Shown: one piece after another, positions 16,282 through 59,156 of the stretch
How the letters are laid out: each line of letters opens with the position of its first letter
Position numbering within the stretch: the first letter of the stretch is position 1
DNA from: Candidatus Omnitrophota bacterium
GTDB lineage: Bacteria; Omnitrophota; Gorgyraeia; Zapsychrales; Zapsychraceae
Reading direction: 5' to 3'
Assembly: GCA_015233405.1 (NCBI GenBank)
Contig: JADFXT010000001.1
Location: 233,386-297,385 of the forward strand
DNA length: 64,000 nucleotides
Notes under the pieces: generated by a model
Told to the model about the DNA's origin: nothing
The model's database searches: none
The model's input: the letters and a program-made list of their open reading frames with translations, nothing else
Made by a program: the position numbers and the translations under genes

Positions 16282-16319
16282 GAAATTCTAAATCCAAAAT
16301 CCGATTCTTTTATATTGTT

Positions 16320-24900: not shown

Positions 24901-27900
24901 TTCAGGATTCGCCGTGACTCCGGAAGAATTAAAGAAGAAAGTTCATGGAGGTAAAATTTCTAATCACTCCATGCTGTATGTCAATGGTGAGAATATTTAT
25001 TTAAATAATCTGGACCTTGACGGGACTTTGATCATCAAAGCGAGAGACGACCAAGAATTAACTATTAATAATTTGAAAGTCGTCAATGAAGGCTATGCCA
25101 TTGTGCCGGTTACGATGGCAGATCAAGGGCTTGAAGAATATATCTCCATGCGAGGATATCAGCTAGACCAGCATGGAAAGATCAAAATGATCGATATTAC
25201 CGACCGTCCTGCCGGGTCTTATGTGATCAATAGTGACGGGGAAATTAAAAAGGCTGATCAGGCGATGATGACAGAGCAAGAAGCGATGACTGAATTATCG
25301 GCGATTGAGCAAGCTGTAACGAATGGAAAATTAGAGGATATGACTCAAAGAATCATGGATTTAGGTGACGCGCTCAATGATTCTCCGAAGAGTTTTAAGG
25401 ACTATGACAATTTTAAAGATTTTATGATCCGTAAACTGGAAGCCGCGGAAAAAATAGCTGCAGCAGCTTTAGGAAATGAGGCTCTCAAAAATCAGATTGT
25501 TCAGGACACACTCGAGAAAATCAAGAGAAAATTGGGAGCTGACAAGCCGGGGAATATTGAAGGACAGGCAGATTTTAATAAGATAAAGAAAAATTTAAGT
25601 GTATGGCTTGATGCGGCCAATAATATTCCGGCGTATATCCGTCAGGGGATCATCAAAGCCATGTTGGAAGGTCGCATAGCGGATATTATGGATTCTTATA
25701 TTTCTCAAATTGAATTTGGAACGGCGGGTGTTCGAGGTACCGTGCTTAATTCCAAATATGATTTCATCGTCAAACATGAAATGCGAAAATTCCAGAAAGA
25801 TCCTCGGGCCGTCGTCTTAACCGGTCCGGCGAATTACAATATTGTCACGACCATCGAACAAACACTGGCTTTGGTCAAACTGACGAAATCTTTACAGGAT
25901 CTTCTTACCAAAAATCCTAATGATGAAAGAATAAAGAAATTAGATCCCGAATACATTCAGGCGTTAAAAAACAATCGCTTTACGATTTCCTATGACAGCC
26001 GTATTAATGGGGAATACTTTGGAAAAATCATTGCTGCCGTCGGGATTCTAAATGGAATTAATATCGATATGTTTGACAGTCCTTCTGGGGTTCCTGCTCT
26101 TGTCTGGGCGGCGAATGGCGAAGGATTTGGCATATTGGATGACGGAGGTTCCATTTTCGGGATCCTGAATTCCGCATCTCACAGCGAATATAACTATAAC
26201 GGATTTAAATCTTTTCTGGCGTATCTTATGGCGCAGGTCGACGCCTATTCCAAAAAACTGATTAAAGAGGCGCGTAAAGGTGTTGTTTTGTCTGAGATGC
26301 CTTTTCATTTATTAGAAGGAAATTGGCGGGCTAATGTGGAAGATGTCTTTAAATCCGCCAACAAATATAATGCCGAATTGCGATGGCTCGGTCATAAAGA
26401 TGCTCAGGCCGGTCTGGAATATTTAGACAAACATCTCGTGGATTTTTATACGACGTATTTTCAATTAGTCCGTTCCAAGGCTATCTCGGAAAAATATCTT
26501 TCTGCTGAAGAAAGAGCAAAAGCCTTGGCAGCTAGAGGTGATGTTACTATAAGATTTAGCGCGTTTTCAGGTGTTGGCGCGGAATTCGCCAGGACCCTCG
26601 ATAAAGATGGTCAAGACATTCTTGTTGAAGCAGGGAATTTTCCTAAATTTTTCAGAGACTCCGGCTTTACGAATTTACGGACTGTCGCGAAATACACCAA
26701 AATCATGGACGGTATGTTTGATGGATTCGAGGCCCCGGACCCAGGCATTCCGAAAGGATGGTATGCGGTCGCGCTCGCTTCCTTATTAGAGGAAGCCGGT
26801 GAGGATTTTGAAAATATCGAAGCCGCCGTCAACAAATTTAATGAAGAGGACCTTTGGGAAGGCGTTGATCCCGACGTCGATCGTTACGGCGGGGCCATTA
26901 AACTGCCTGCGGGAGTGAAAGGAAACATTAAAGCTGGTTTTATCAAGATCGTTGAGAATTATATTAATTCCTTAAAGATTGATGACGCCGCTAAGGCCGC
27001 AATGAAGCAAAGGGTCTTCGCTGCGTTGGAAAAAATGAACGATAAGCTGTTATTAACGGCCAACGAAGCTTGGACCATGTTGATTTTTTATTCGCTATCG
27101 ATAGCGCATCAAAATGGCAAATTGGACAAAAACACCCTTTATACCATTGAAAAATCCCATGTCACCACCGACGGACTTCAGCGTGTCGCCAAATATTTCC
27201 GCGCTTTGGGATATAAAATCTATGTCATCGACACCTGGGTTGGATTTACCGAGCTAGGTGCTACGGCTCGGTTGGCTTTCGATCTTGCCAAAGGTGGGGT
27301 TCAGAAGAATGCCGTTGCGATGAAGGAAGCCTTAGCCAAATTAAAAGCCATGAATCCGGAGGAATATGTTGATCCCAGCAATCCGGAAGATACGTTTTAT
27401 AAATTTGTCCAAAGGACCATTGACCTTCTGGAGAAATCTTTAGCGAGGACGCTTTCTTCAGATGAGAACGCAACCTTACTGAGTAATTTAGAGGCGTTAT
27501 CAAAGATTGAGAACATCGCCGGCGTTGAAGAAAGTAACGGCTATGGAGAAATGGGCAAGCTGGATGCGAAGACATTAAAGATCGTCGACAAACATATCAG
27601 CGACAAAGACGGCGGGCTTGCTGGATTTAAATTTGCCGACCTTTTGGCTATTGGTAAGTCCAGGGGCAAAGATCCTTACGATATGTATCAGGACGTCATT
27701 CGGGAGCTCGGACAAGTCAGTACCTTTAATAATCAAATTCGCTATGCGGGTTTTGAAGGTACCAAACAGAAATTCGGTACCATGGAAACCCTGGAAAAAT
27801 ATTTCTTGTTGGCGATCCAGCAGCGGTTGGACAAAGGAGAGGATGTTTATCTCTTTAATGGACGCTATAAAGTTAAGAGTTTAGTCACTTATCGGGCGTT

Positions 27901-29059
27901 TAAATATGACAAATTTTATCGGGGTCTTCCTGAAGAAGGAACCCGGTTATACGTGGAAGTCCGTGATGCTAGTGGCAAAAATTTAGGTGATGCTATTATT
28001 ACTTACAGGCCGTCAGGAACCGGCGACAGCAATCGTGTTTACAACTGGTTTCTGGGTGTTAAACCAAAGGCCGATGAAAACTTTGACGATTATTTTAGAC
28101 GGAATAATGATATTGTGGCGAATTTAAACAAGGATTTCTTTGGGGTGGACGCGGATATCGAGCAAGATTTTAAAACCGGAGACGTTTCTGGTTATGTGGA
28201 CCGCCCAGTCAATGAGTTTTATGGATTGGCGTTCGCTATTAAAGAGGCGTTCCGTCGAGGTTATACGCGAGCGCAGTCTGCGGGGGCTTTTGAGGAAATC
28301 CGAATCCCGTTGGCCAAGGCGTTGGGAGAAAGCACTCCGATCACTTTTAGTCCGGGCTTGGAAAATTTGATCGCGGCTGTCAAAGCTTATACGTTCGCGG
28401 ATCGCCTGGAACAGAATTGGGACAGGATGAGCTCGACTGAACGAAAAGAAAATTTGGATATTTTTGAAAATGCCAGAGCGAGAAATTTCCAGGAATGGCA
28501 GACGTATCTGGACAGTCCTGAGTTTAAAGAATATTTAGCTCAGACGAAAGATACGAATAAAATTACCATTACTTTCGGGCTGGAAGGAAAAACGCAGACC
28601 ATTCAAATCCCCAAAGCCGTTGTCATGGGATTAAAAACTGGACTGGCGGATTATCTTATTCAAGCGTTGGAAAAAGCAGGAGTAGATCTTCCGGCAGTTG
28701 TTAAGGAGGATAGTTATCTTCAGTCCAATGACGGAGAAATCGTGCGCATGGTCAGAAGCCGCATTGAGGAAGGCTGGCCAGCTGACAATGCTCTTATGGT
28801 ACAAACGAATGATTCAGCTAACCGTGACAAGGCCATGGCGATCGATCCAGTCGGTGGTATTGACCTTAATTCCAGTTATTTGGATATGCAGATCAAGCGG
28901 GATAATAATGGTGTGCCGCTGCCTTTAAAGATGCAGCCGCTACAAAATATGCATATTGAAGGGTTTGTTCCGGTCATTATCAACATTACGCCGGTCGAGA
29001 ATTTCCCGGCGCTGTTGGGGGTTAATGAAGAAAAGGAAAAGCCTGAAAAGCTCAGTTAA
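21983..29059 (+). CDS. Giant modular protein 1 (2358 aa): signal/anchor + shared N-domain + UDP-sugar pyrophosphorylase module + phosphohexomutase module + shared C-module
   Basis: Uninterrupted 7.1-kb ORF; AGGAGG RBS; enzyme motifs listed in the sub-features; paralogous ends with ORF 42302-50158. Confidence 0.9.
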   Translation: MMNFIRESKRGTMYRIFSAFIAFSFMLSSIIPASYGQIAPLQAINLPIPGQIVTQSSAYAPAIVKGITINPKNPLQFDFLVDSGENNLQGQALKEESQRLVKYFLTSLTVSEKDLWVNLSPYEKDRIIPENFSQTEMGRDLLAQDYILKQLTSSLMYPEKQIGKDFWARVYEKAQKEFHTTDIPTDTFHKIWIVPNKAVVYEKDNSAFVLEAHLKVMLEEDYEALKANSNKANAQTSEKNLVTTQIIKDILVPEIEKEINTGKNFASLRQIYNSMILAAWFKRTLKESLLSKVYVNQSKMKGIDGVTPQIKEGIYNQYLAAFKKGVYNYIREEYNSETQEVIPRKYFSGGFDPKSIFIETDPTLTVATPKTVDSTMLKEARKIAGIISDVKVNLADAGPAANVGLATAKKDKAMTTANAALIEADKNSGLFSDAQKKAFDVLSQIGESELVDAFYALNPTPEQKKAFLDTVLKLNRLYPGGLDEYLRKGKDLLTKAEKNINPMEGYTDPTQPPVEDFTDMNSPYFKDMTAVGLKTVNKTIFAMPAGGLGTRLGFNGPTKLAIILDLLVMKMYIEDYAEKILALQKRSNAINGEKQEIPLVLMTSDSNHTGTIKLLTEKNNLGMNGLTVLDAAKGDHVIFDNVRQKLIVYDGNNQEKGELKQIVIFKQEDVASMKGYDGRLYIDAKKKNIATAPHNHGDIHLLMYQTGLAQAYKDAGKKETMFFQDTNGEVFNGVLPILGAVVTKKYKMGFSVFGLKAGDKVGVMARMKNPQGKDVVLNVEYNQQEAVLTPFGKKIEDFKGNINNFVIDQEEYAKILDRIKGVVLNSELVNPKPDTKVSRLETPMQDISREVDGADVGLMLFAPQFNFAATKNDLSNAILATAKGLFSEYMASTEGVHALNARKLFSAAGVDIDVNGEVKYAYERAEGYKAQFGEKGTRILGLPGEEKKDIGPIKKEAIVRGVPYLSAAKIAFASGFAVTPEELKKKVHGGKISNHSMLYVNGENIYLNNLDLDGTLIIKARDDQELTINNLKVVNEGYAIVPVTMADQGLEEYISMRGYQLDQHGKIKMIDITDRPAGSYVINSDGEIKKADQAMMTEQEAMTELSAIEQAVTNGKLEDMTQRIMDLGDALNDSPKSFKDYDNFKDFMIRKLEAAEKIAAAALGNEALKNQIVQDTLEKIKRKLGADKPGNIEGQADFNKIKKNLSVWLDAANNIPAYIRQGIIKAMLEGRIADIMDSYISQIEFGTAGVRGTVLNSKYDFIVKHEMRKFQKDPRAVVLTGPANYNIVTTIEQTLALVKLTKSLQDLLTKNPNDERIKKLDPEYIQALKNNRFTISYDSRINGEYFGKIIAAVGILNGINIDMFDSPSGVPALVWAANGEGFGILDDGGSIFGILNSASHSEYNYNGFKSFLAYLMAQVDAYSKKLIKEARKGVVLSEMPFHLLEGNWRANVEDVFKSANKYNAELRWLGHKDAQAGLEYLDKHLVDFYTTYFQLVRSKAISEKYLSAEERAKALAARGDVTIRFSAFSGVGAEFARTLDKDGQDILVEAGNFPKFFRDSGFTNLRTVAKYTKIMDGMFDGFEAPDPGIPKGWYAVALASLLEEAGEDFENIEAAVNKFNEEDLWEGVDPDVDRYGGAIKLPAGVKGNIKAGFIKIVENYINSLKIDDAAKAAMKQRVFAALEKMNDKLLLTANEAWTMLIFYSLSIAHQNGKLDKNTLYTIEKSHVTTDGLQRVAKYFRALGYKIYVIDTWVGFTELGATARLAFDLAKGGVQKNAVAMKEALAKLKAMNPEEYVDPSNPEDTFYKFVQRTIDLLEKSLARTLSSDENATLLSNLEALSKIENIAGVEESNGYGEMGKLDAKTLKIVDKHISDKDGGLAGFKFADLLAIGKSRGKDPYDMYQDVIRELGQVSTFNNQIRYAGFEGTKQKFGTMETLEKYFLLAIQQRLDKGEDVYLFNGRYKVKSLVTYRAFKYDKFYRGLPEEGTRLYVEVRDASGKNLGDAIITYRPSGTGDSNRVYNWFLGVKPKADENFDDYFRRNNDIVANLNKDFFGVDADIEQDFKTGDVSGYVDRPVNEFYGLAFAIKEAFRRGYTRAQSAGAFEEIRIPLAKALGESTPITFSPGLENLIAAVKAYTFADRLEQNWDRMSSTERKENLDIFENARARNFQEWQTYLDSPEFKEYLAQTKDTNKITITFGLEGKTQTIQIPKAVVMGLKTGLADYLIQALEKAGVDLPAVVKEDSYLQSNDGEIVRMVRSRIEEGWPADNALMVQTNDSANRDKAMAIDPVGGIDLNSSYLDMQIKRDNNGVPLPLKMQPLQNMHIEGFVPVIINITPVENFPALLGVNEEKEKPEKLS
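22100..23063 (+). other. Shared N-domain of giant ORF1 (unknown function)
   Basis: Aligns by eye with ORF2 N-domain (DLWVNLSPYEK, AQDYILKQLT.SLMYPEK.IGKDFW, TTDIPTDTF, AHLKVMLEEDY, KYFSGG). Confidence 0.8.
23290..25200 (+). other. UDP-sugar pyrophosphorylase (USP, UDPGP family) module in giant ORF1
   Basis: End-to-end resemblance to plant/trypanosomatid USP as I recall it: LNRLYPGGL..Y..GK.LL, AGGLGTRLGFNG, APHNHGDIH, FFQDTNG, LNVEYNQ, C-terminal beta-helix-like NIYLNNLDLDGTLII. Confidence 0.8.
25600..28150 (+). other. alpha-D-phosphohexomutase (PGM/PMM-like) module in giant ORF1, with large insertions
   Basis: All four family loops present: FGTAGVRG and active-site SASHSEYNYNGFK; metal loop DPDVDR; sugar loop GVEESNG; phosphate loop RPSGTGDSNRVY. 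Confidence 0.75.
28826..29056 (+). other. Shared C-terminal module of giant ORF1
   Basis: DKAM..GGIDLN ... GFVPVIINITP..FPALLG; aligns with the ORF2 C-terminus. Confidence 0.8.
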
Positions 29060-31812: not shown

Positions 31813-31822
31813 AATCCTTTCT

Positions 31823-31944
31823 GTCATCCCAGCCCTGTCTTTGTCATTCCCGCGAAAGCGGGAATCTAGGATATGAGGTTGATTTTAGTGGGAATTCAGA
31901 ATTATAAAAACATTTACTGGATTCCCGCTTTCGCGGGAATGACA
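31823..31944. repeat. MITE/REP-like palindromic element, copy 4
   Basis: GTCATTCCCGCGAAAGCGGGAATCTAG 31843-31869 with partial arm 20 nt upstream; CTGGATTCCCGCTTTCGCGGGAATGACA 31917-31944. Confidence 0.85.
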
Positions 31945-33499: not shown

Positions 33500-33523
33500 A
33501 AGTGTCGTCTTGTTTCCATTTTT

Positions 33524-33657
33524 GTCATTCCCGCGCAGGCGGGAATCCAGGGTAGAAGTCGCTTGAGCAAGCGGTCAAAAATTTGAAAAGCATTTACTGG
33601 ATTCCCAATCATTTCTAGATAAAAAATCGAGGTAATTGGGAATGACAGTAAAAAACT
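33524..33657. repeat. MITE/REP-like palindromic element, copy 5
   Basis: GTCATTCCCGCGCAGGCGGGAATCCAG 33524-33550; long-loop arm CTGGATTCCCAA..TTGGGAATGACA 33597-33657. Confidence 0.85.
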
Positions 33658-33664
33658 AAGGATT

Positions 33665-33746
33665 GTCATTCCCGCGTAGGCGGGAATCCAGGTAATAGTT
33701 TTATCGTTAAACCATGGATCCCCGCTAAAGGATTGCGGGGATGACA
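33665..33746. repeat. MITE/REP-like palindromic element, copy 6 (tandem to copy 5)
   Basis: GTCATTCCCGCGTAGGCGGGAATCCAG 33665-33691; ATGGATCCCCGCTAAAGGATTGCGGGGATGACA 33714-33746. Confidence 0.85.
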
Positions 33747-39273: not shown

Positions 39274-39290
39274 GTTGGATATTTTTTAAT

Positions 39291-39359
39291 GTGGATTCCC
39301 GCCTGCGCGGGAATGATAGAAAGGGGTGTCATCCCCGCAATCTTTAAGCGGGGATCCAG
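39291..39359. repeat. MITE/REP-like palindromic element, copy 7 (arms in swapped order)
   Basis: GTGGATTCCCGCCTGCGCGGGAATGATA 39291-39318; GTCATCCCCGCAATCTTTAAGCGGGGATCCAG 39328-39359. Confidence 0.85.
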
Positions 39360-42001: not shown

Positions 42002-42104
42002 GAATCCTCGCTAAAAAATTTCTCGCCTGGTGCCCTTGTTTTTTCCAAATTATATGCTATCTTTTCTCTAATCTTTGTATATACCCCTTTTGGGGCATTA
42101 TAAG

Positions 42105-42211
42105 ATTATCCAGCCACGACCGAGGGCGTAATGCCCGAGGAAGTAGTTGAGCACGACCGAAGACGAAATGTCTGAGGGAGTGGTTGAGCATCAGCGAAAC
42201 CATCAGCGAAA
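42105..42211 (+). repeat. 37-nt hairpin-repeat family: two tandem units plus tail, upstream of giant ORF2
   Basis: Units 42115-42151 and 42152-42188 (CACGACCGA-stem-loop-stem-GAGGRAGTRGTTGAG); tail CATCAGCGAAAC x2; same family as 57436-57686. Confidence 0.8.
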
Positions 42212-42301: not shown

Positions 42302-45300
42302 ATGGAATTTGTTCTACCCAAAAGACAAAAGAATATGTTCATTAAGATCGTGTCGACAATTCTCTCGATCACGTTCATTTCCACAACGGCCGTACCGCCG
42401 AGCTATGCACAAGTTATGAACTTGCCGCAGCCGGGCAGCATGGTGGGCCTCACGCCAGCATTTATGCCTACGCTGATCAAGGGGCTAAAAGTCCATCCGG
42501 AGAATCCGCTTTTATTCGATTTTATCCTCGATACTGGAAAATCTGGCATTGCGGTCAATACTCCTGAATTTAAAGCCGAATCCGAAAAACTCATCAAATA
42601 TTTCCTAGCGTCCATGACGATCAAAGAATCCGACCTTTGGGTTAACTTATCTCCGTACGAAAAGAACAGAATTGCAACTGATGAATTAGGTAAAACAGAG
42701 CTTGGCCGTGACATGCTCGCGCAAGATTATATTCTCAAACAGCTCACGGCCTCGCTTATGTATCCAGAAAAGGAAATCGGGAAAGATTTTTGGAATAAAG
42801 TTTACGCTGAAGCGAAACAGAAATTTGGAACTACTGATATTCCTACGGACACGTTTAATAAAGTCTGGATCGTCGCTGATAAGGCAACGGTATTTGAGCG
42901 GGAAGTCGCTGTCCCGACGCCAGGAGGGTCGGGACTCCGGGCTCTCAAGGAGCCCGTCGCGTACGTCGTCGGAGCTCATTTAAAAGTAATGTTGGAAGAG
43001 GATTATGTGGCAGCCAGTAAAGCTTCTTCCGGTCATTCCACAATCTCCCCATTGTCATCCCCGCAATCTTTAAGCGGGGATCCAGCAGTGGATTCCCGCC
43101 TTCGCGGGAATGACAGAATTTCTTCTGTTATCCGTCAAATCATCCTCCCGGCAATCGAAAAAGAAGTCAACGAAGGAAAGAACTTCGCGACGTTAAGACA
43201 GATGTTCTATTCGATGATTCTAGCTACTTGGTATAAACAAGCCTTGAAAGATGCACTTTTAAATCAGGTCTACAGCGATAAAGCCAAAATTGGCGGAGTT
43301 ACAAATAACGACCCAGCTATTAAAGAGAAGATTTACGCCCAGTATTTGGAAGCATTCAAGAAAGGTGCTTACAACTATATTAAGGAAGAATATGATCCCG
43401 CGACGCAGCAGGTAACTCCTAAGAAATATTTCTCCGGCGGTCTTGAAATTGGCGTCGGAAAAGTCCTTGCCCGTCAAGCTATTCAAACTCCGGAAACTGA
43501 TAGCGCTATGGCTCCCAACGGCGACATGGCCATGGTTTCGACGAGATTAGCAACGACCTTGGCGGCCATTGGCCTTGGGGCAACTCTTTTAGTTGGCGGT
43601 TTTTATTATCACGGCGCTACTCAAAGCCAGATTTGGGAAAAATCCAAGAGCAAAGCAGACATTGTTTCTATCGAAAAATATCATCAGCAAAGAGACCGTA
43701 TGGGTTTAAAGGTCATATCGAAAAAGGCTGAGGCGCGTTATCAAAAGATCATACGCGAGATTCAAAGAGCAAGAGAACAAAAGGCCAAAACTGTCGGAAA
43801 TGAAACCAATGACAAGATCGCCTTGGCAGAGAAATATTCTGTCTTTGATCAATTTACTGAAACTTATGCCGATCTTGCGGAGAATGATGTGGATGATAAT
43901 CCGGCGCAACGTATGGGTGGAAATGTGCCGTCGGCTTGGAAAACCCGTCTGGGTTCTCAGGAGCGGGACGCGGTCGAGACGGGAAGAGAAGGAATATTAG
44001 CGTTGACGTTAAATAATCTATCGAATGAAATTGGGATACAGCTGCGTTTAATTAATGTTGAGAAAAAACATATTAATCAATTTAAAAAAGTGGCGCCGAC
44101 TTTCTTTAAAGGAGAAATGGGCACGGATATTGGGAAGGTTGATTCATCGCTTACGAATTATTTCGTCAATGAAAACACTACAGAAACCCAAATGCTCAAT
44201 GATTACACCTTTCGCCAGCGTGATCGCGTCAATAAGATGCTTTATAAAACAAACGCCTCTTATCATTGGCATTCAGATCATTTTAGCGGCCTGTCAAATT
44301 TTCATCAGAAAAAATTATCTCCGGCCATCCAGAGCGCGGATAAAATTGTAAAGTATATTAAATCCATGCAGAGCAATAAAAGTTTGGAAACGATGAATCT
44401 GGGATTAGCAACCATGCACATGGCTGATGTTGAAATGGAGACGGACCAGGACGGGCATATGACAACGAAAATTGTGAATAATAGCGGGCCTTATCTGGCC
44501 TTAGCAGCTACATTTGCCGCCGCGGCCTCCGTTGATGCTCATAATGCAAATAAAGAAGCTGCAAGATTAAAGAATTTGCTTCCATTGTTCATGAATGACC
44601 CGCTGTTTCAGCAAGAGAATTTGCAAGGACCATTTGCCAATTTAAACTGGAAGGACCAAGCCTCGGGAATCTTGCATCCCATTTTGGATTTCGTTTTGCC
44701 GCCGACCTTTAGTTTGATAGGAAATATATTTAGTGATAATGGAAGCACCGGACTTCAAACTATTGAACCGGTTCGCCAAGCGCTTCATACTTCCGAAGCG
44801 TCAATCACCCCGCGGATTAATGTGGAACATAAATGGATAGATGGTCAGATTGACACGGAAATATCCCGTCAGATAGAGGAAGAAAAAGCCGTTTCTTTAT
44901 TCGGTAATGACTACGCCATGACGACAAGTGATTTAGAAACGTTTGTTGGTACCGTTAATAATCTTCCGGACTCTGTCAAGCAGAAAATAGGCACGAATAT
45001 AAATATTTTTCTTAAAGGCAAATCCGGAGTGAGAACGGATAAAGCCATGATGAGTGCTATTAAGGAAACGATCGATGACCTTCAAAAGAGGCTCCCTTCT
45101 GAGGAACAATTAAATATCCTTGTTCAACAGCACCAAATTACTGAAAGCCAGAGAGCAGATTATAAGAAGTTAATACAATTGATTGAACAGCTTTCTAAGG
45201 TAGACGAGGAAAAAATTTGGGAATCGATAGAATCCAAGGGATATACACGCGCTGATTTTGAGGCCCTTGTTAAAGATTTAGGTTCCGTGATTGCAAATTA

Positions 45301-48300
45301 TGAACCGAAGGGATTAGGTATAAAAGACATTCGCAAGTACAAAACACAATTGAGCAACAACATGTTATTCAGCCTTACCGTGATTTTAATCATGTATGTG
45401 TCTTTGGTGTCTCCTGCCATTCAGTATGATTTTAAGGGCTTTTGGATGATATCCGGAAGTTTAGGTTTGGTTGTGACCTTAATAAACGCCGGTTTAGTAA
45501 TAAAAAATGTGAGGAAATGGTTTTTCATCGACAAGCTTTCTTCCGACGACCAAGCCATGACAACGGTATTATCTCCTGACATGGATTTTACGACGGCGCG
45601 GCAGGAATTTTTTACAGCCTTAGAAAAGAAATTTGTTCCGGAATTAAATCGGAAAGCGGCGTATGAGTTGCTGACGGATTTGCGTAGCTATCTTTTGGAG
45701 CATCAGGCTTCGCCAAGTTTAATTCCGTTGATGGACGGCATTCATGCTGATTTGACCAAAAGATACACGGACATTAATGAGGGCCGCTTTGGAAAATTTG
45801 ACACGGATATTCAGCACACAAAAAGCGCAGATATGGTCATGCAGATGGTCGGGGAACTCATAGGGATGCAAGTTGTCCTGGCTCATAATAGAGAACGCTT
45901 AAGCTCTAACCGTGGTCTCGCCGAGCAAATCGGACAGGAACTTATTAAAGAGCTTCCCGCCGAGAATCCGCTTAAAAGTGCTATTGATAACAAAGAATTT
46001 ACCGAAGAAGAGGCAGTAAGCGCGCTACGAGATGTGTTCATAAGCCGGGCGCGTTTGGTTGATCAAACAGCGTCTATCAAAGAGTTACCGGCATCTGTCC
46101 AAGCGCTTGCGTGGCTTAAGAATCCGGATTCTCGTCCAGATACCATTCGTTTGAATACTTTAAAAGGGAAAACCATTTTGGTTACTGGCGGATCTGGTTA
46201 TGTCTCTGCGGGCGTTATCCATGATATTTTAGCGCAAGGCGCGAAAGCGATCATTTATGACAACTCTATCCGCGACCGTGAAGAAATGGGAAAACTCCCG
46301 GGAGTGACTGTTATCGACGGAGGAATTGACAATCAGGCGAAAATGGAACAGATCATGCGCGACAATAAAGTCGACGCGGTCGTCCATTTAGGCGGATATA
46401 TCGCTGCGGGTGAATCCATGAAATTCCCGGCAAAATATTTCAACAATAACATTCGAAATACCGTCACATTACTGGCGGCCATGAGCAATACGAACGTCAA
46501 GAATTTGGTGTTCGCATCCAGCGCCGGAGTTTATAGCGGAAAAGAATTTAACAAAGACGGGGTTTTGGACGAGACCATGAGACCCGACCCCCAGAACGCT
46601 TATGGGACGACGAAGTATGGGATGGAAATGATGATGAGGGAATATAGCGAGAAGTTAGGAATTAAAATGGTGGCCTTACGATTCTTTAATGTGGCCGGCG
46701 CGTTTAAATGGGGCAATACCTGGTATGGGGAAAATCACGAAGGCCCGGAAACGCATCTGATCCCGCGCGTCATGAAGGCGTTTTTGTATCCGGATAAAAT
46801 TCAGTTTAAGATCTTTGGAACGGATTATGATACTGTCGACGGGACCGCAGTCCGCGATTATATTCAAGTCCAGGATCTGGCTGACGCCCATATGCGGGCC
46901 TTGGCGCATTTATTCGACAACGGAACAAATAAAATTTTAAATCTTGGAACAGGCGAAGGCTATTCGGTCAAGGAAGTTGTAACGCAAATACAGGCCTTGA
47001 TCAAGAAGGAAACCGGCAAGGACTTTCAGGTCGGGGTCGCTGGCCGACGGGCAGGTGACCCGGCGGAGCTGAAGGCGAGCGGCAAAAAGGCTTTTGGTGA
47101 GTTGCATTGGAAGGCCGCGCATGGTTTGGAATCCACTATCGCAAGCGCATGGGCTTTTCATATTCAGGAAAAGGCCTTGGGGCGTCTGAACCATGATGCT
47201 CTGGCGCCGGAAAGCAAACTGCCGCAGAGTGAAGTGGAATTTATGGACGGGTTCCTTAAGGAGCTTTCTTCTAATACTGTTATTTCTTCCGATATCAAAT
47301 TGGAATTTTTCTTCCGTCTGTTCGCCTATTCGCTGAACGCGGAATTTAAAGGCGGCGAAAGAAAGTATATTTCCGACGAAGACGCTATTTATCAGCGTGC
47401 TGGCGAAATTCAATCGGATAAAAGAGGCGTTGTGCCAACGCTCGCGGTGGACCAGGATTTTCGTAATCAGCTTGCGGCGTATCAAGAGAAGATCAAAAGT
47501 GAACAATCCCCAATTTATCAACAGCGCTCGGCATATCTCTCGACGATCTTTGAGCTGTTAAAGAATACAGACAAGGCGATGGCGACAGCACAAACCAAAG
47601 ATGTTTCAGATGCCACAATCGAAACAGCAGTGGAAACCATAAAAAAAGATTTCTTTGCTAAGGCCAATCTGACGCCGAAGGAAAAAGATTTCTTTAAAAT
47701 ATATTTTATATCCGAATTTACAACAGCGCTCAAAGTTGCCGTTAAAAAGGGGATCTTTACTAGCAATTTTGTCAATGTCTCCGTAGGAAAATATTATACC
47801 GCCGATTTAAGTTATGCGGACGCTGCAAAAATCATAGCCATTAAATTGCGCGAAGGCTTTGGCGAACATAATATCAACAAAGAAATTTTTGTTTCGACCT
47901 ATCAGCTTTTGTCTGATATTGACAAAGCTATGACGACGGGTATGTCGGACGAGATGAAGAAACAGGTGGATGCCTTAGATGACCCAAGGGCCAAGAAAGC
48001 TTTAACGCTAGTGTTTACCAACGCCATAGAATGGGCAGATGCTTTTAAAAGACATGCTTTGACAGAAATGAGAAATCGGAAGATTAACCTTGAATGGGTT
48101 TATGGTCCTTATGTCAATTATGTAAATTTAGTCCAGACTCCGCTGTCGATCAGCGAGATCGAGGACATGGCAACGAATTATGTCTATAGAAAAGACAAGG
48201 CGATGATGTCCGATGATGATCCGTGGTATTACGGACCGGAAGCGGATTCTTCTAACTATCTTTCCAATGACGAGTTTTATGGAGATAAACCTCCAGACAC

Positions 48301-50158
48301 GTTGTATCATTCAACTGAATCTTTAGATGATTTCTTCCAGAAGCCTTTTGAAGTAGAGAGGAAAAGAGCCGCAAGATTGATCGCGGTCAAGGAAATGGAA
48401 CAGAAACGGTCGCTCATTCCGATATTGGGATACGCGGCCATTGATCTTTATAATCAGGCGACTGAGTCCAATGTCTCGAGCCAGGAATTCTCGACGGAAC
48501 CGAACGTTCAGTTTAAAGTCTTAGCTTGGGTGAAAGAAAAATATAATCTTAAGAGCCTTCCGATGGCGATGGACCTGACCTTAGAGCATGAATCCATCAT
48601 CTTAAATAATGTGACGGACGAAGGCCGTGTAACGCTACAGAAAGATGAGGAGAAGAACATCCGGTTCATCAATGGAAAAGAGACCTTGATTGATTTTAAA
48701 GGATCCGGACGACCAGAGTTGAACTTGACGCTTAAACGCGCGGGCATTGATTGGAACAAGCTAAAACCATTTGATCCTAAGCAAGCGGCTCGCTTTCAGG
48801 TCGCTGCGGCAGCTCTGGCTAAGTTTAAGGAAAAATTCCCCACATCGCCGACCATGGCGTTTGCCATTTCTCCGTATACGCTGGTGTCTCATCTTTTAGG
48901 CGATGAGGCATTTGTGGGACTTTTGAGCGATACCGACGAGTTTAAGGCGGTCTTTGCATACGCCAAACAATATATTAAAGATTATGTGAAATATATGGCT
49001 GAAGTCGGTAAGGCGGATTCCGTCATGTTTCTCGACCCTGTCCCGACGGGAACGATGTCTCCGGATATGTTTGAGTCCTATGCGGTCGAGCCTATTAATG
49101 AGATTGCGGATTATGCCCGTTCGCTTGGGCTTGTGGTGGGCGCGCATCCGTGCCGTCCTCAGAATGATGCGATGGCTAAGCAACTTTTGCCTAAGTTTGC
49201 TCAATATAAGGTCGACCTTTTAAGCATCGACAGTATCTATAATCTGCGCGAGGTTTATGATTATATTCAAGCAAACGTTCCGGAAAAAGATCGGCCGGTT
49301 TTAATAGGGAATGTGGATACGATCGAGACGTTGCCTCAAGGCTCGCCGGAAAAAGTAACGAGCGAGGTTTCGCAGATCTTTAAGACCATGGGCAATGCGC
49401 CTTTTATTCTTTGCTCGAGCTGTGATATTTTGTCCATTACCAAAGAGAATATGACCGCACTTTATCAGACGGCAAAGAAAGAAGCCGAACCGTTTGACAA
49501 GGCGATGAGTGTGGCGACAAGCGAAACACGGGAAATTAAACTAGAAAATGATTTAGGAATGCATTTTAAACCTGCCAATGCGATTTCGCGAGCAGCGGAA
49601 ACATTTTACAAGCAAGGCATCGTCGTCATAATTGAAAAAGATGATGACATGGTTCGTTTGGACAATTCTAATATGAATGTCATGAGATTATTGTCTTTGG
49701 GAATATCACAAATAAAACCGGTGAAAGTGACCATAGAAAGTGAAGACTTTTTATCTTCCGAGGAAATTGATTTCGTATTCGCCATGTTAAAAGAATTGTT
49801 CCAAAGTAAACAATTACTGGAAGCCCCGGAACATGGGAATGACGCTTCGGCTGCTTATTCAGCAAAGATAAATAGGTTTTTTGAACAGCAGAAAAGAAAC
49901 GAACTTGATGAGGCGATGACGACAAAAGCCCCCGGCGGTATTGACTTAAACGCCAAGAATTTGAAGATGGACGTGTCGAAGGACGGGAAAGGCGTTGAAT
50001 TTAAATTCGACCCGGCCATGGTCGCGGAATTCCAGAAAGGGAATTTTACCGGTGTCGTGCCGGTCATTATCCGTATCACACCGATTGAAAGCCCGTTTCC
50101 GTTGTTGGGATTAGAAGTTCCGACGGAACAAGCGATAGAGATAACGAAAAAATCGTAA
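42302..50158 (+). CDS. Giant modular protein 2 (2618 aa): signal/anchor + shared N-domain + TM-containing modules + UDP-glucose 4-epimerase + URO-D-like + HPr-like + shared C-module
   Basis: Uninterrupted 7.9-kb ORF; AAGGAG RBS; enzyme motifs in sub-features; ends paralogous to ORF 21983-29059. Confidence 0.9.
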   Translation: MEFVLPKRQKNMFIKIVSTILSITFISTTAVPPSYAQVMNLPQPGSMVGLTPAFMPTLIKGLKVHPENPLLFDFILDTGKSGIAVNTPEFKAESEKLIKYFLASMTIKESDLWVNLSPYEKNRIATDELGKTELGRDMLAQDYILKQLTASLMYPEKEIGKDFWNKVYAEAKQKFGTTDIPTDTFNKVWIVADKATVFEREVAVPTPGGSGLRALKEPVAYVVGAHLKVMLEEDYVAASKASSGHSTISPLSSPQSLSGDPAVDSRLRGNDRISSVIRQIILPAIEKEVNEGKNFATLRQMFYSMILATWYKQALKDALLNQVYSDKAKIGGVTNNDPAIKEKIYAQYLEAFKKGAYNYIKEEYDPATQQVTPKKYFSGGLEIGVGKVLARQAIQTPETDSAMAPNGDMAMVSTRLATTLAAIGLGATLLVGGFYYHGATQSQIWEKSKSKADIVSIEKYHQQRDRMGLKVISKKAEARYQKIIREIQRAREQKAKTVGNETNDKIALAEKYSVFDQFTETYADLAENDVDDNPAQRMGGNVPSAWKTRLGSQERDAVETGREGILALTLNNLSNEIGIQLRLINVEKKHINQFKKVAPTFFKGEMGTDIGKVDSSLTNYFVNENTTETQMLNDYTFRQRDRVNKMLYKTNASYHWHSDHFSGLSNFHQKKLSPAIQSADKIVKYIKSMQSNKSLETMNLGLATMHMADVEMETDQDGHMTTKIVNNSGPYLALAATFAAAASVDAHNANKEAARLKNLLPLFMNDPLFQQENLQGPFANLNWKDQASGILHPILDFVLPPTFSLIGNIFSDNGSTGLQTIEPVRQALHTSEASITPRINVEHKWIDGQIDTEISRQIEEEKAVSLFGNDYAMTTSDLETFVGTVNNLPDSVKQKIGTNINIFLKGKSGVRTDKAMMSAIKETIDDLQKRLPSEEQLNILVQQHQITESQRADYKKLIQLIEQLSKVDEEKIWESIESKGYTRADFEALVKDLGSVIANYEPKGLGIKDIRKYKTQLSNNMLFSLTVILIMYVSLVSPAIQYDFKGFWMISGSLGLVVTLINAGLVIKNVRKWFFIDKLSSDDQAMTTVLSPDMDFTTARQEFFTALEKKFVPELNRKAAYELLTDLRSYLLEHQASPSLIPLMDGIHADLTKRYTDINEGRFGKFDTDIQHTKSADMVMQMVGELIGMQVVLAHNRERLSSNRGLAEQIGQELIKELPAENPLKSAIDNKEFTEEEAVSALRDVFISRARLVDQTASIKELPASVQALAWLKNPDSRPDTIRLNTLKGKTILVTGGSGYVSAGVIHDILAQGAKAIIYDNSIRDREEMGKLPGVTVIDGGIDNQAKMEQIMRDNKVDAVVHLGGYIAAGESMKFPAKYFNNNIRNTVTLLAAMSNTNVKNLVFASSAGVYSGKEFNKDGVLDETMRPDPQNAYGTTKYGMEMMMREYSEKLGIKMVALRFFNVAGAFKWGNTWYGENHEGPETHLIPRVMKAFLYPDKIQFKIFGTDYDTVDGTAVRDYIQVQDLADAHMRALAHLFDNGTNKILNLGTGEGYSVKEVVTQIQALIKKETGKDFQVGVAGRRAGDPAELKASGKKAFGELHWKAAHGLESTIASAWAFHIQEKALGRLNHDALAPESKLPQSEVEFMDGFLKELSSNTVISSDIKLEFFFRLFAYSLNAEFKGGERKYISDEDAIYQRAGEIQSDKRGVVPTLAVDQDFRNQLAAYQEKIKSEQSPIYQQRSAYLSTIFELLKNTDKAMATAQTKDVSDATIETAVETIKKDFFAKANLTPKEKDFFKIYFISEFTTALKVAVKKGIFTSNFVNVSVGKYYTADLSYADAAKIIAIKLREGFGEHNINKEIFVSTYQLLSDIDKAMTTGMSDEMKKQVDALDDPRAKKALTLVFTNAIEWADAFKRHALTEMRNRKINLEWVYGPYVNYVNLVQTPLSISEIEDMATNYVYRKDKAMMSDDDPWYYGPEADSSNYLSNDEFYGDKPPDTLYHSTESLDDFFQKPFEVERKRAARLIAVKEMEQKRSLIPILGYAAIDLYNQATESNVSSQEFSTEPNVQFKVLAWVKEKYNLKSLPMAMDLTLEHESIILNNVTDEGRVTLQKDEEKNIRFINGKETLIDFKGSGRPELNLTLKRAGIDWNKLKPFDPKQAARFQVAAAALAKFKEKFPTSPTMAFAISPYTLVSHLLGDEAFVGLLSDTDEFKAVFAYAKQYIKDYVKYMAEVGKADSVMFLDPVPTGTMSPDMFESYAVEPINEIADYARSLGLVVGAHPCRPQNDAMAKQLLPKFAQYKVDLLSIDSIYNLREVYDYIQANVPEKDRPVLIGNVDTIETLPQGSPEKVTSEVSQIFKTMGNAPFILCSSCDILSITKENMTALYQTAKKEAEPFDKAMSVATSETREIKLENDLGMHFKPANAISRAAETFYKQGIVVIIEKDDDMVRLDNSNMNVMRLLSLGISQIKPVKVTIESEDFLSSEEIDFVFAMLKELFQSKQLLEAPEHGNDASAAYSAKINRFFEQQKRNELDEAMTTKAPGGIDLNAKNLKMDVSKDGKGVEFKFDPAMVAEFQKGNFTGVVPVIIRITPIESPFPLLGLEVPTEQAIEITKKS
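42413..43450 (+). other. Shared N-domain of giant ORF2 (contains two in-frame palindromic insertions)
   Basis: Aligns by eye with ORF1 N-domain; extra segments at 42905-42956 and 43032-43115. Confidence 0.8.
43032..43115. repeat. MITE/REP-like palindromic element, copy 8, in frame inside giant ORF2
   Basis: GTCATCCCCGCAATCTTTAAGCGGGGATCCAG 43054-43085 and GTGGATTCCCGCCTTCGCGGGAATGACA 43088-43115, partial arm at 43032; 84 nt = 28 codons, translated as ..SPLSSPQSLSGDPAVDSRLRGNDR.. Confidence 0.85.
46166..47170 (+). other. UDP-glucose 4-epimerase (GalE-type SDR) module in giant ORF2
   Basis: ILVTGGSGYVS Rossmann motif, catalytic YGTTKYGME (YxxxK), LRFFNVAGA, DGTAVRDYIQVQDLADAH, RRAGDPAEL. Confidence 0.85.
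48299..49487 (+). other. URO-D / MtaA-like TIM-barrel module in giant ORF2
   Basis: Family-like pattern: FAISPYTLVSHLLGDE, AGKADSVMFLDPV..MSPDMFE, VGAHPC, LIGNVDTIETLPQGSPEKV..EV, ILCSSCDI. Fold-level call only. Confidence 0.5.
49532..49805 (+). other. HPr-like (PTS phosphocarrier fold) module in giant ORF2
   Basis: EIKLENDLGMHFKPANAISRAAETF aligns with the HPr His15 region (GLHxRPA); His codon at 49562-49564; RLLSLGISQIKPVKVTIESED resembles the HPr C-terminal half. Confidence 0.55.
49907..50155 (+). other. Shared C-terminal module of giant ORF2
   Basis: DEAMTT..GGIDLN ... GVVPVIIRITP..FPLLG. Confidence 0.8.
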
Positions 50159-50190
50159 GATAGTTTTTTCCCCTCCCACAAAATATTTTT

Positions 50191-50286
50191 GTCATCCCGG
50201 GCGAAGACCCGGGATCCAGGATCTTAAAGTATTTCCTGGATTCCCAATCATTTCTAGATAAAAAATCAAGGTAGTTGGGAATGACA
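50191..50286. repeat. MITE/REP-like palindromic element, copy 9
   Basis: GTCATCCCGGGCGAAGACCCGGGATCCAG 50191-50219; long-loop arm CTGGATTCCCAA..TTGGGAATGACA 50236-50286. Confidence 0.85.
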
Positions 50287-50425
50287 GCAAAAAGAGATGA
50301 CCAGTAGGATAAATTTTTCCAAAATTCTGAAGTAGTACACTGCCGGCAGGCTGACCTCCCCCATCAAATGTAAGGGGGAGGGAAAACATTTAATGCAATA
50401 GAAATAACGCAAAAATCTTCATTTC

Positions 50426-54341: not shown

Positions 54342-54415
54342 GCGCCCATAGCTCAACTGGATAGAGCATCAGCCTTCGGAGCTGAGTGTTGGGGGTTCGA
54401 CTCCCTCTGGGCGCG
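54342..54415 (+). tRNA. tRNA-Arg (anticodon TCG)
   Basis: 74 nt cloverleaf folded by hand: acceptor GCGCCCA/TGGGCGC, D arm GCTC..GAGC, anticodon stem TCAGC/GCTGA with loop CTTCGGA, T arm GGGGG-TTCGACT-CCCTC; CCA not encoded. Confidence 0.9.
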
Positions 54416-55950: not shown

Positions 55951-56002
55951 GCCGTAACCCCATTTCCTTTTAGTAATCTTACGTTATAAATTGGAGTTTT
56001 TT

Positions 56003-57343
56003 TTGATCCCGTATATCCCCAATACAAATAATGATGTAGCCCAGATGCTGAAGGTCATCGGAGTTAAGTCTGTCGATGCTCTTTTTGAAGACATTAAGCC
56101 TCAGCACGCTCCTAAATCTTTTAATTTGCCGGAAGGAAAATCTGAGTTTGAAGTCGTCGAGCATTTAAAGGCCGTGGCCTCCAAGAATGCCGCGCATTTG
56201 ATTCCTTTTATCGGCGGCGGGTATTATGACCATTATATTCCTTCAGCCGTCGGGGCGCTCATTTCCCGTAGCGAATTTTATACCGCGTATACGCCGTACC
56301 AGCCGGAATGTTCCCAAGGTGTTTTGCAGGCATTGTATGAATTTCAAAGTTCTATCTGTACGTTGACCGGCATGGAAGTGGCGAACGCCTCGGTTTATGA
56401 GGGTGGAACAGCTCTTTATGAAGCGGCGATGATGGCCTTTCGTTTGACCAAACGTTCGAAGATCGTGATGGACGGCGGAGTAAGCCCGATTTACCGTAAA
56501 ATTATCAAATCCTATACGAGCAATTTGCGGTTTGAGTTTCAGGAATCCGCAGTGGTTCATGGCCACAGCGACCGGGAGCAGATCTATAAATTATTGGATA
56601 AAGACACAGCGGCGATCATTTTGCAGAACCCGAATTTTTTTGGCACGATTGACGACCATAGCGATATCGTTGAAGAAGCGCATAAGAAGGGGATCCTCGT
56701 CATTCAAAGTGTTTATCCGGTGGCGTTGGGAGTTCTTAAAACTCCCGGGGAGATGGGCGTAGATATTGTAACCGGCGACGGACAGAGCTTAGGGCTATCG
56801 CTTAATTTTGGTGGGCCTTATTTTGGTTTTATGGCCACACGCAAGAAATATATCCGTAGCATGCCGGGACGTATCGTCGGACAAACCGTGGATAATCAAG
56901 GCCGGCGATGTTTCGTCAACACGCTTCAGGCCCGTGAACAGCATATCCGTCGGGAAAAAGCCACATCGAATATTTGTACCAACGCCGCCCTTTGCGCGAT
57001 TCAGGGACTGATCTATATGTCTTTGTTGGGCAAAGAAGGCCTCAAGGAATTGGCAGAGCTTAATTTTAAGAAAGCGGAATTCGCCCGGCAGACTTTGGAA
57101 AAGATCAAAGGCGTTCAGGTCAAGAGAAGTTCGCCGACATTTAATGAATTTACGGTCTGTTTGCCGAAGGACGCGTCATTGGTCATAGAACAAATGGTGG
57201 ACAAAGGCTTTGCCGCCGGTTTTCCGCTCGGCCGTTATTATCCGGGCATGGAAAATTATATGAGCATTGCGGTGACGGAAAAGCGTACGAAACAGGAAAT
57301 TTTAAATTACGCCAAAGCGCTGGATGAAGTTTTAAACGGATAA
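56003..57343 (+). CDS. gcvPA: Glycine dehydrogenase (decarboxylating) subunit 1
   Basis: IPYIPNT..ML N-terminus, YTPYQPE.SQG motif. ORF track starts at TTG 55991; TTG 56003 is preferred because GGAG lies about 7 nt upstream. Confidence 0.85.
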   Translation: MIPYIPNTNNDVAQMLKVIGVKSVDALFEDIKPQHAPKSFNLPEGKSEFEVVEHLKAVASKNAAHLIPFIGGGYYDHYIPSAVGALISRSEFYTAYTPYQPECSQGVLQALYEFQSSICTLTGMEVANASVYEGGTALYEAAMMAFRLTKRSKIVMDGGVSPIYRKIIKSYTSNLRFEFQESAVVHGHSDREQIYKLLDKDTAAIILQNPNFFGTIDDHSDIVEEAHKKGILVIQSVYPVALGVLKTPGEMGVDIVTGDGQSLGLSLNFGGPYFGFMATRKKYIRSMPGRIVGQTVDNQGRRCFVNTLQAREQHIRREKATSNICTNAALCAIQGLIYMSLLGKEGLKELAELNFKKAEFARQTLEKIKGVQVKRSSPTFNEFTVCLPKDASLVIEQMVDKGFAAGFPLGRYYPGMENYMSIAVTEKRTKQEILNYAKALDEVLNG

Positions 57344-57355
57344 AATCCTAAGGTT

Positions 57356-57433
57356 GTCATCCCCGAATGCATTAGTCGGGGAACCACAAGGCGTGAAGGT
57401 CTGGATTCCCGATAAAAACTTTCGGGAATGACA
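57356..57433. repeat. MITE/REP-like palindromic element, copy 11 (divergent)
   Basis: GTCATCCCCGAATGCATTAGTCGGGGAACCA 57356-57386; CTGGATTCCCGATAAAAACTTTCGGGAATGACA 57401-57433. Confidence 0.7.
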
Positions 57434-57435
57434 GA

Positions 57436-57686
57436 AAAAGAAGAACATAGGCGAAAGAATCACGACTGAGGACGCAACCTGCCTGCCGGCAGGCAGGTGT
57501 CCGAAGAAGTGGTTGAATATAAGGGAAAAAATCACGACTGAGGACGTAATGTCCGAAGAAGTGGTTGAATATAAGGGAAAAAATCACGACTGAGGACGTA
57601 ATGTCCGAAGAAGTGGTTGAATATAAGGGAAAAAATCACGACTGAGGACGTAATGTCCGAAGAAGTGGTTGAGCATAGGCGAAACC
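57436..57686 (+). repeat. Tandem array of the hairpin-repeat family (partial unit, one 72-nt unit, two 52-nt units, one terminal unit) ending at the gcvPB start codon
   Basis: Units start with CACGAC at 57461, 57533, 57585, 57637; the unit at 57461 carries the 22-nt perfect palindrome ACCTGCCTGCCGGCAGGCAGGT (57477-57498) in place of the hairpin loop. Confidence 0.9.
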
Positions 57687-59156
57687 ATGGATCTCATTTT
57701 TGAAAAAAGTATTAAAGGCGTTCGCGGGTATTTGAACCCGAAGCCGGATGTCGATATCAAGGTAGAATTTCCGTCGAAGTATCGAAGAAAAGAGGATACT
57801 AATCTTCCGGAATTGTCCGAGCTTGATGTGGTCCGTCATTTCTTGAAGCTGTCCCAGAGAAACGTCGGCGTCGATACGACGTTTTATCCCTTGGGTTCCT
57901 GCACGATGAAATATAATCCCAAATTTACCGAGCGCATTGCTCAAATGCCGGCGTTTACAGACATTCATCCGTTGTTACCTCAATTGAAGAAAGCTGACAA
58001 GCTCACGCAAGGGTCGTTGGAAGTTCTTTATGAAATGGAAAAGTGGCTTTGCGAAATCACGGGTATGGACGCTTTTACGATGCAGCCGTTGGCCGGTGCT
58101 CACGGAGAACTGACCGGGGTCATGATGATCGCGGCCTATCACAAGGCCAAAGGAAATAAGAAAAAATATATTATCGTCCCGGATTCTTCCCACGGAACCA
58201 ATCCGGCGACTGCCGCTATTGCAGGGTATGAACTTATTTCTATTCCCTCCGATGAGAACGGTGTGATGGACCTTGAGGCGGCTAAGAAACATATTAATCA
58301 AGACGTGGCGGGCATGATGCTCACGTGTCCTGACACGCATGGCGTTTTTAATCCGCATATTGACGAGATTGCCGAGCTTATTCATAAGGTCGACGGACTA
58401 ATGTATTACGATGGCGCGAATTTAAACGCAACGTTAGGTCGCTGCCGTCCTGGAGACATTGGGTTCGATGTGATCCATATCAATATTCATAAAACATTTT
58501 CCACGCCTCACGGCGGCGGCGGTCCGGGTGCCGGGCCGGTCGGTGTTAAAGAAAAATTGATCCCGTATTTACCGATATCCCGCGTTGTCAAAAAAGACGA
58601 CGGGACGTTCCGGCTTAATTATGATTATCCTAAATCCATCGGTTATATTTCTTCGTTTTATGGAAATTTCGGGATTCTCTTGAGGGCTTACGCGTATGTG
58701 CTTTTGTTGGGGAAAGAGGGTCTCAAAGAAGTCAGCAATAACGCGGTTTTAAACGCCAACTATATTAAAGAGCGCCTCAAAGGGCATTACCAGATCGCTT
58801 TTGACCGCATTTGCATGCATGAATGCGTTTTTTCCGCCTCTCAACAGGCCGAGCGCGGGGTTCATGCGATTGATATCGCGAAATATTTGATTGACCAGGG
58901 GATCCATCCTCCGACGGTGTATTTCCCGTTGACCGTTAAAGAGGCGATCATGATCGAACCGACCGAAACAGAATCAAAAGCCACGATTGATAATTTTATC
59001 GATGTCATGATCCAGGCGGATGAGCTCAGTAAAACCAATCCAGATCTCTTTCATTCTTTTCCGCAGACGACCCCGGTGAGCCGGCCGGATGAAGTCAAGG
59101 CCGCTATGGACATTGACACAAGTTACTTCTTAAAAAAGTCATCAACTGACGAATGA
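57687..59156 (+). CDS. gcvPB: Glycine dehydrogenase (decarboxylating) subunit 2
   Basis: MDLIFEKS N-terminus typical of GcvPB; PLP region HINIHKTFSTPHGGGGPG. ORF-track TTG 57669 lies inside the repeat array, so ATG 57687 is preferred. Confidence 0.9.
   Translation: MDLIFEKSIKGVRGYLNPKPDVDIKVEFPSKYRRKEDTNLPELSELDVVRHFLKLSQRNVGVDTTFYPLGSCTMKYNPKFTERIAQMPAFTDIHPLLPQLKKADKLTQGSLEVLYEMEKWLCEITGMDAFTMQPLAGAHGELTGVMMIAAYHKAKGNKKKYIIVPDSSHGTNPATAAIAGYELISIPSDENGVMDLEAAKKHINQDVAGMMLTCPDTHGVFNPHIDEIAELIHKVDGLMYYDGANLNATLGRCRPGDIGFDVIHINIHKTFSTPHGGGGPGAGPVGVKEKLIPYLPISRVVKKDDGTFRLNYDYPKSIGYISSFYGNFGILLRAYAYVLLLGKEGLKEVSNNAVLNANYIKERLKGHYQIAFDRICMHECVFSASQQAERGVHAIDIAKYLIDQGIHPPTVYFPLTVKEAIMIEPTETESKATIDNFIDVMIQADELSKTNPDLFHSFPQTTPVSRPDEVKAAMDIDTSYFLKKSSTDE

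Follow-up and report, generated by a model that had tools for sequence, protein, structure and literature searches.

The gcv operon that we analysed lies in a 64-kb stretch of DNA (the window) in which gcvPA and gcvPB, the genes for subunits 1 and 2 of glycine dehydrogenase, are separated by a spacer of 343 nt. The gcvPA product ends in ...LNG*, matching its counterpart in the closest relative, while the gcvPB product shares the MDL start seen in the relatives and matches the protein P0001 from a Candidatus Omnitrophica MAG at 100% identity. An SD of its own is not evident ahead of gcvPB. The spacer opens with a diverged MITE-like copy (57355-57433) and continues with an array of hairpin repeats. 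A tRNA gene (54342-54415; Rfam 65.9 bits) stands directly upstream of gcvT, and Rfam detected no glycine riboswitch ahead of the operon.

The array (57461-57686) contains four direct units, each of which opens with CACGAC (starts at 57461, 57533, 57585 and 57637), and it runs to the gcvPB ATG at 57687, as the original prediction had stated. The plan of the repeat is a core followed by a linker or tail of 12-15 nt (CAT..GCGAAA). An extra linker copy, GAACATAGGCGAAAGAAT, lies ahead of unit 1, so the array starts slightly earlier than its first CACGAC and repeats with a period made up of a 37-nt core and a 15-nt linker. The two flanking sequences, GAACATAGGCGAAAGAAT and GAGCATAGGCGAAACC, repeat one another in direct orientation. 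Three of the copies are 100% identical, and Tandem Repeats Finder reports a period of 52 with 3.4 copies and 100% matches over 57498-57672, an identical stretch of 175 nt; a 29-nt core occurs exactly three times in the window and in none of 100 shuffles. Because three units are 100% identical, the sequence indicates that the tandem expansion was probably recent and local. The array closes with a tail (GAGCAT..GCGAAAC) that is also present at a second locus in the window, at 42 kb; the tail of unit 4, CATAGGCGAAACC, abuts the gcvPB ATG, and GAGCATNNGCGAAA is the tail in common with the 42-kb locus.

Unit 1 differs from the others in its loop, which had been described as replaced by a perfect 22-nt palindrome (57477-57498) that extends the hairpin. 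A perfect palindrome is indeed present, but it is better described as a 20-nt loop insertion (57478-57497) plus a T>C change. The inserted sequence, CCTGCCTGCCGGCAGGCAGG, is unique within the window, occupies a block of insertion columns in the unit alignment, and may have arisen as a micro-insertion nested in the unit, by templated repair or through misassembly. A related 10-mer, CTGCCGGCAG, is found at 50340-50349 in the spacer after the giant gene described below.

Table 1. Positions of the genes, repeat units and neighbouring elements in the window.
Feature	Position	Strand	Evidence or remark
gcvPA, glycine dehydrogenase subunit 1, upstream gene	55991..57343	+	Pfam GDC-P, E = 1.8e-127
Diverged MITE-like copy (TGTCATCCCCGA...TCGGGAATGACA)	57355..57433	.	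opens the 343-nt insertion; long hairpin fold
Linker copy before unit 1, GAACATAGGCGAAAGAAT	57443..57460	+	86% identical to internal linkers; resembles 3' tail GAGCATAGGCGAAAC
Unit 1, 72 nt	57461..57532	+	covariance model 61.5 bits; rod hairpin 57458-57514
Perfect GC-rich palindrome CCTGCCTGCCGGCAGGCAGG, 20 nt	57478..57497	.	loop of unit 1; 100% complementary inverted repeat
Unit 2, core 37 nt + linker 15 nt	57533..57584	+	covariance model 71.5 bits; hairpin 57530-57566
Unit 3, 100% identical to unit 2	57585..57636	+	covariance model 71.5 bits; hairpin 57582-57618
Unit 4	57637..57686	+	covariance model 72.7 bits; core 57637-57673, hairpin 57634-57670
gcvPB, glycine dehydrogenase subunit 2, downstream gene	57687..59156	+	Pfam GcvP2_C and GDC-P
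Unit v1, stem GGGC/GCCC, inner pair CC/GG	42115..42151	+	covariance model 66 bits; hairpin 42112-42148
Unit v2, stem AGAC/GUCU, loop GAAAU	42152..42188	+	covariance model 36.4 bits; hairpin 42149-42185
Tail CATCAGCGAAAC, ~2 copies	42189..42211	+	Tandem Repeats Finder: period 12, 1.9 copies, 100% matches
MITE-like copies	2553-2708, 9135-9258, 16316-16429, 31819-31944, 33516-33746, 39283-39359, 50190-50293, 57355-57433

At the 42-kb locus, two 37-nt units (v1 and v2) abut directly at 42115-42188, and the 12-nt tail CATCAGCGAAAC comes after them twice; Tandem Repeats Finder reports a period of 37 and 2.1 copies over 42115-42190. Pattern matching revealed that this tail is homologous to the tail plus linker of the 57-kb locus. 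The 42-kb units sit upstream of a giant gene of 2618 aa that is unrelated to gcv (42302-50158). NAD-dependent epimerase, URO-D and HPr-like domains are combined in this giant ORF, which has no counterpart at the syntenic position of the closest relative (L006); the other giant ORF in the window, of 2358 aa, lies at 21983-29059. The left flank of the 42-kb units (42084-42114, ACCCCTTTTGGGGCATTATAAGATTATCCAGC) has the look of a degenerate hairpin end from the MITE-like family (CCCC..GGGG...ATCCAG), which suggests that both arrays may adjoin MITE hairpins.

The original prediction centred on a small hairpin, GGAC-GTAAT-GTCC, with a stem that covaries to GGGC/GCCC and AGAC/GTCT at the 42-kb locus. 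All of these variants are present, but the predicted structure is not just this 4-bp tip: the unit folds as a 12-bp rod, AAUCAC-GA-CU-GA-GGAC-GUAAU-GUCC-GA-AG-AA-GUGGUU, interrupted by two symmetric and conserved 2x2 purine internal loops of the tandem G.A type. As + strand RNA, the three sequence variants adopt one common predicted fold, with free energies of -14.3 kcal/mol for unit 2 (z = -3.6), -14.3 kcal/mol for v1 (z = -3.0) and -14.7 kcal/mol for v2 (z = -4.1), and none of 200 shuffles was as stable. Unit 1 reaches -30.9 kcal/mol (z = -6.0). Antisense RNA folds were weaker (-7.5 to -13.7 kcal/mol), and folds computed with DNA parameters (-2.9 to -5.2 kcal/mol) were no better than those of shuffles.

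We found that 96.7% of paired cells in an alignment of five distinct rows were complementary, compared with 18-48% when the partners were slid by 1-3 columns. Three of the 12 stem pairs have changed on both sides (U-A to C-G, G-C to A-U and A-U to G-C), and these three compensatory pairs, each found in a different variant, account for six of the nine variable core positions; the pair CU/AG versus CC/GG had not been listed in the original prediction. When the same numbers of substitutions were placed at random in a Monte Carlo simulation, three compensatory events arose with P = 7e-6 to 4e-5 (about 1e-5) for a sample of only three independent sequences. Together, the slid controls and the simulation demonstrate that the covariation stands and is stronger than first proposed, and the compensatory changes show that selection has kept the hairpin.

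Comparison with seven related Omnitrophota loci revealed how unusual the spacer is. In the closest relative (gcvPB 82% identical; 5 contigs) the junction reads TAA-ATC-ATG, a gap of 3 nt, and in L019, L020 and L022 gcvPA and gcvPB overlap by 10 nt; altogether, the two genes are 3 nt apart or overlapping in five of the seven loci. The 343-nt spacer is thus a lineage-specific insertion, and with it this genome has lost the ancestral stop-start coupling of gcvPA and gcvPB. The remaining two loci have unrelated AT-rich inverted-repeat spacers of 134 nt (L011, 9867-10000) and 163 nt (L021, 9838-10000), which suggests that the junction has been colonised repeatedly and independently in the Omnitrophota. 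The gene upstream of the 42-kb units also has an ortholog in the closest relative (48% identity, 1e-76), where it is followed by 15 nt and then the next gene, with no counterpart of the 42-kb site. Judged by this comparison, the 42-kb insertion is lineage-specific too.

Both nhmmer and a covariance model run with filters off found exactly six units at two loci in the whole 64-kb window, all of them intergenic, direct and on the + strand. The covariance model found no unit in the seven related gcv loci, and nhmmer found no further units in related loci. Scans with the pattern CACGANNGANNNNGNAATNNNNGANNNAGTNGTT recovered no true copy from GTDB (one genome per species) or JGI metagenome contigs, and scans with a 16-base variant of it recovered none from viral contigs; the 12 matches obtained in the genome, metagenome and viral scans all lacked a complementary stem and are attributable to chance. 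BLAST against phage and plasmid records gave no match. The lack of true copies in these collections means that the family is very narrow, or that the source genome is absent from them or masked there.

The window is also rich in the MITE-like family whose diverged copy opens the spacer. Its end motif, GTCATYCCCGA, matches 24 times in the window versus 2.3 expected. The ends of the family are hairpins (TGTCATTCCCGCGAAAGCGGGAATCCAG ... CTGGATTCCCGCCTTCGCGGGAATGACA), several subtypes can be distinguished, and copies occupy many intergenic gaps. One copy lies inside the uninterrupted 2618-aa ORF (43053-43116) as an apparent frame-keeping insertion of ~63 nt, and its first 33 nt are 100% identical to an intergenic copy at 39327-39359.

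A structured RNA or attenuator had been among the roles originally suggested. Like leader-peptide attenuators and other cis-regulatory leaders, the units have a hairpin that lies ahead of a gene and takes in an SD-like motif and an AUG. They differ, however, from a regulator of gcv in several ways: no terminator/antiterminator alternative was found at the gcvPA-gcvPB spacer, no terminator-like or promoter-like site was found in either spacer (57 kb or 42 kb), there are no regulatory codons, and the position is not conserved, given the 3-nt gap or overlap in five of the seven related loci. The same repeat unit also precedes the unrelated giant gene. An attenuator or gcv cis-regulator is thus not supported, while the three compensatory pairs bear out the more general proposal that the element is structured and its stem covaries. 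Rfam at gathering thresholds over the whole window matched no family to the units, and at E up to 10 over 57300-57760 again gave no match to them, glycine riboswitch included; these scans returned only a tRNA and two junk matches (miRNA and snoRNA).

Several other known elements were considered by eye and rejected. For a hammerhead (CUGAGGA ... GAA), the register of helix II does not close and CUGA is CCGA at the 42-kb locus. Box C/D and k-turn motifs do not fit symmetric 2x2 loops without a 3-nt bulge, and the D-box-like CUGA is not conserved. The sequence GTTGAGC fits the GTTRRRY core of an integron attC site, but an inverse core (RYYYAAC) is missing from the 5' side. A CRISPR array needs unique spacers of ~30 nt, whereas the 'spacers' here measure 0 or 15 nt and do not differ in sequence.

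The closest parallels are found among small intergenic repeats. REP/BIME and REPIN elements, which occur in Proteobacteria and are mobilised by RAYT proteins, are likewise short imperfect palindromes confined to extragenic space; compensatory changes that keep their stems are common, and tandem arrays of near-identical REPINs including their flanks have been described (PMC3116915), just as in the array here. They can also lie within operons, and repeats inserted in operons affect expression (PMC3049150). By contrast, the units here have no sequence similarity to REP/REPIN, no GTAG head (GTAG occurs only in the 3' arm of v1) and no inverted doublets, but do have a strong sense-strand asymmetry and conserved tandem purine loops. 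A RAYT gene would be expected, and none was found among 38 of the larger ORFs of the window, scanned with Pfam; REP/REPIN elements also reach tens to hundreds of copies per genome, compared with six units at two loci in the 64-kb window here. BOX elements of Streptococcus (boxA-boxB(n)-boxC) resemble the array in having an internal module in a tandem array of variable length, the module here being 52 or 37 nt: the 57-kb locus holds four of the 52-nt units, one of which measures 72 nt, and the 42-kb locus holds two of 37 nt. The internal module of BOX folds on its own, as the units here do, and BOX elements cluster with repeats of other families and are co-transcribed with genes (PMC3049150). 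BOX elements differ in that their inverted boxA and boxC ends pair, whereas the flanks here are direct linker copies with no outer inverted repeat found; their sequence is unrelated and they belong to another phylum. Like MITEs, including the GTCATTCCCGC family of the window, the array is small, non-coding, intergenic and lineage-specific, and one such element directly adjoins it. Unlike MITEs, neither locus yielded terminal inverted repeats or target-site duplications in a repeat search and by inspection. The element is not a member of the REPIN, BIME or BOX families.

We favour, with moderate confidence, the reading that the element is a structured intergenic repeat, new and narrow in distribution and of the same kind as REP/BIME or BOX elements, which was locally amplified by tandem duplication and is tolerated in the operon. 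A second mobile repeat family had been one of the roles proposed at the outset, and it is the role that fits best: the units occupy two unrelated intergenic sites, both without a unit in the closest relative, and the genome is rich in small palindromic repeats, one of them directly beside the array. Under this model, the hairpin would form as sense-strand RNA or as + strand single-stranded DNA, and copies would have arrived in at least two intergenic gaps of an Omnitrophota genome. At the gcvPA-gcvPB junction the element may have landed beside, or together with, the MITE-like element, and slippage or unequal recombination would then have given four units, three of them still identical. Selection would act on whatever propagates or retains the element and not on glycine-cleavage regulation. 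The lack of a U-tract terminator suggests that the element is tolerated inside the operon and that the array is co-transcribed with it. Four stable stem-loops may have the generic effect of uncoupling gcvPB translation from gcvPA, and they may buffer mRNA decay or processing. Against this reading stand the small count visible in the 64-kb window, six units at two loci where a mobile family would be expected to have many copies in its genome, the chance-only matches in the genome, metagenome and viral collections, the failure to find terminal inverted repeats or target-site duplications, and the fact that all units are direct and co-oriented with transcription, unlike the inverted doublets of REPINs. 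Pfam also detected no transposase domain in 38 of the larger ORFs of the window, a set that left out the 2358-aa ORF at 21983-29059 and several small ORFs.

The sense bias, the conserved purine loops and the near-equal free energies of the three variants could mean that the units are a functional RNA module. As a cis-acting module, the rod hairpins with their tandem G.A loops would serve as a protein-binding or nuclease-resistant platform for the downstream mRNA, controlling the processing, stability or translation of gcvPB or giant-gene mRNA at a dosage set by tandem copy number; we regard this as possible but unlikely. It would account for significantly stable folding of the sense RNA and not of the antisense RNA or DNA, for purine loops that are invariant or conservatively changed while the stems covary, and for the abutment of unit 4 on a gcvPB start with no evident SD. 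Both loci also lie upstream of, and co-oriented with, a + strand gene, but co-orientation at two sites is uninformative in a window whose genes lie almost all on the + strand. The module is absent from all seven related gcv loci examined, five of which have a 3-nt gap or overlap, no Rfam family matches it, and the three 100% identical units point to recent duplication rather than to a maintained dosage. Alternatively, the units may act as DNA, as hairpin or duplex sites for a DNA-binding protein or a single-strand transposase-type protein (RAYT or IS200/IS605-like), with the covariation reflecting recognition of single-stranded DNA hairpins during mobilisation. Compensatory stem changes typify REP/REPIN elements that Y1 transposases mobilise (PMC3116915), the tail 3' of the hairpin is conserved at both loci as a guide or cleavage region would be, and the units cluster with another palindromic family. 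The predicted DNA hairpins are nevertheless weak and no better than those of shuffles, a conserved GTAG head and inverted doublets are missing, and Pfam found no Y1 transposase in 38 of the larger ORFs of the 64-kb window, so we consider a DNA-level element decidedly unlikely. A role at the RNA level accounts for the sense-strand asymmetry and strict purine-loop conservation at least as well as recognition at the DNA level.

The units also contain mini-ORFs, which read exactly as originally described and which had been proposed as reiterated leader peptides. If translated, they would form an SD-AUG relay of mini-cistrons (13-16 codons each) from the gcvPA stop to the gcvPB start, or a set of leader peptides. 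In keeping with this, a gap-poor chain of small ORFs extends from 57354 to 57703; a stop and a start overlap as ATGA at 57428-57431, the last ORF of the chain overlaps the gcvPB ATG, and each AUG has a GAGGA 4 nt ahead of it. The peptides, however, have no more than their first 8 codons in common, coinciding with conserved nucleotides, and their tails, lengths and stops vary between copies and loci; periods of 37 and 52 nt put each successive unit in another frame, and unit 1 has lost its ATG. The claim that the TGA stop of each mini-ORF overlaps the next GAGGA holds at the 57-kb locus and not at 42 kb, where CCGA replaces the stop-bearing CTGA and the ORFs end at other positions. Both the SD-like GAGGA and the AUG lie buried in the hairpin of about -14 kcal/mol, and in v2 the SD-like sequence has decayed to GAAGA while the stem was compensated. 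Synonymous differences between copies had also been noted, and four of the six differences within the ORFs are indeed synonymous versus two non-synonymous; this excess is not significant (binomial P about 0.1), most of the synonymous changes are 3' halves of compensatory pairs, and three of the six differences are explained in this way. Structure alone thus accounts for the pattern, and coding adds nothing. The peptides are not enriched for glycine codons and so offer no regulatory logic. A conserved small protein is not supported, with no peptide conservation beyond that of the nucleotides and no conserved stop or length, and translated mini-ORFs of either kind are very improbable. We also think it highly improbable that misassembly produced the unit number or the loop palindrome. 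An artefact would be in keeping with the MAG origin of the sequence, with 175 nt of perfect 52-nt repeats, a length above typical assembly k-mers, and with a perfect 20-nt palindrome that is unique in the window, but the end units of the array differ from the internal ones, and the diverged units at the independent 42-kb locus demonstrate that the family itself is real. A bolder proposal, which we judge quite improbable, is that the 37-nt rod hairpin is a previously undescribed Omnitrophota sense-strand RNA module that spreads between intergenic regions and is kept by acting on mRNA, as a protein-binding or nuclease-blocking platform, or that it gates a mini-ORF chain that re-establishes ribosome delivery to gcvPB, the ancestral stop-start coupling having been broken by the insertion.

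Together, these data confirm the observation made in the original prediction, while its interpretation is partly supported. If the element is a structured intergenic repeat, as we favour, it would be a further small family of structured repeats, from a phylum represented almost entirely by MAGs, and it would explain the odd 343-nt gap in the normally tightly coupled gcvPA-gcvPB pair, which would be useful for annotation. If instead the sense bias and G.A loops reflect an RNA function, the unit would be a compact, undescribed RNA module with compensatory substitutions at three stem pairs, and the gcvPA-gcvPB junction would be a natural example of how a repeat can re-wire an operon.
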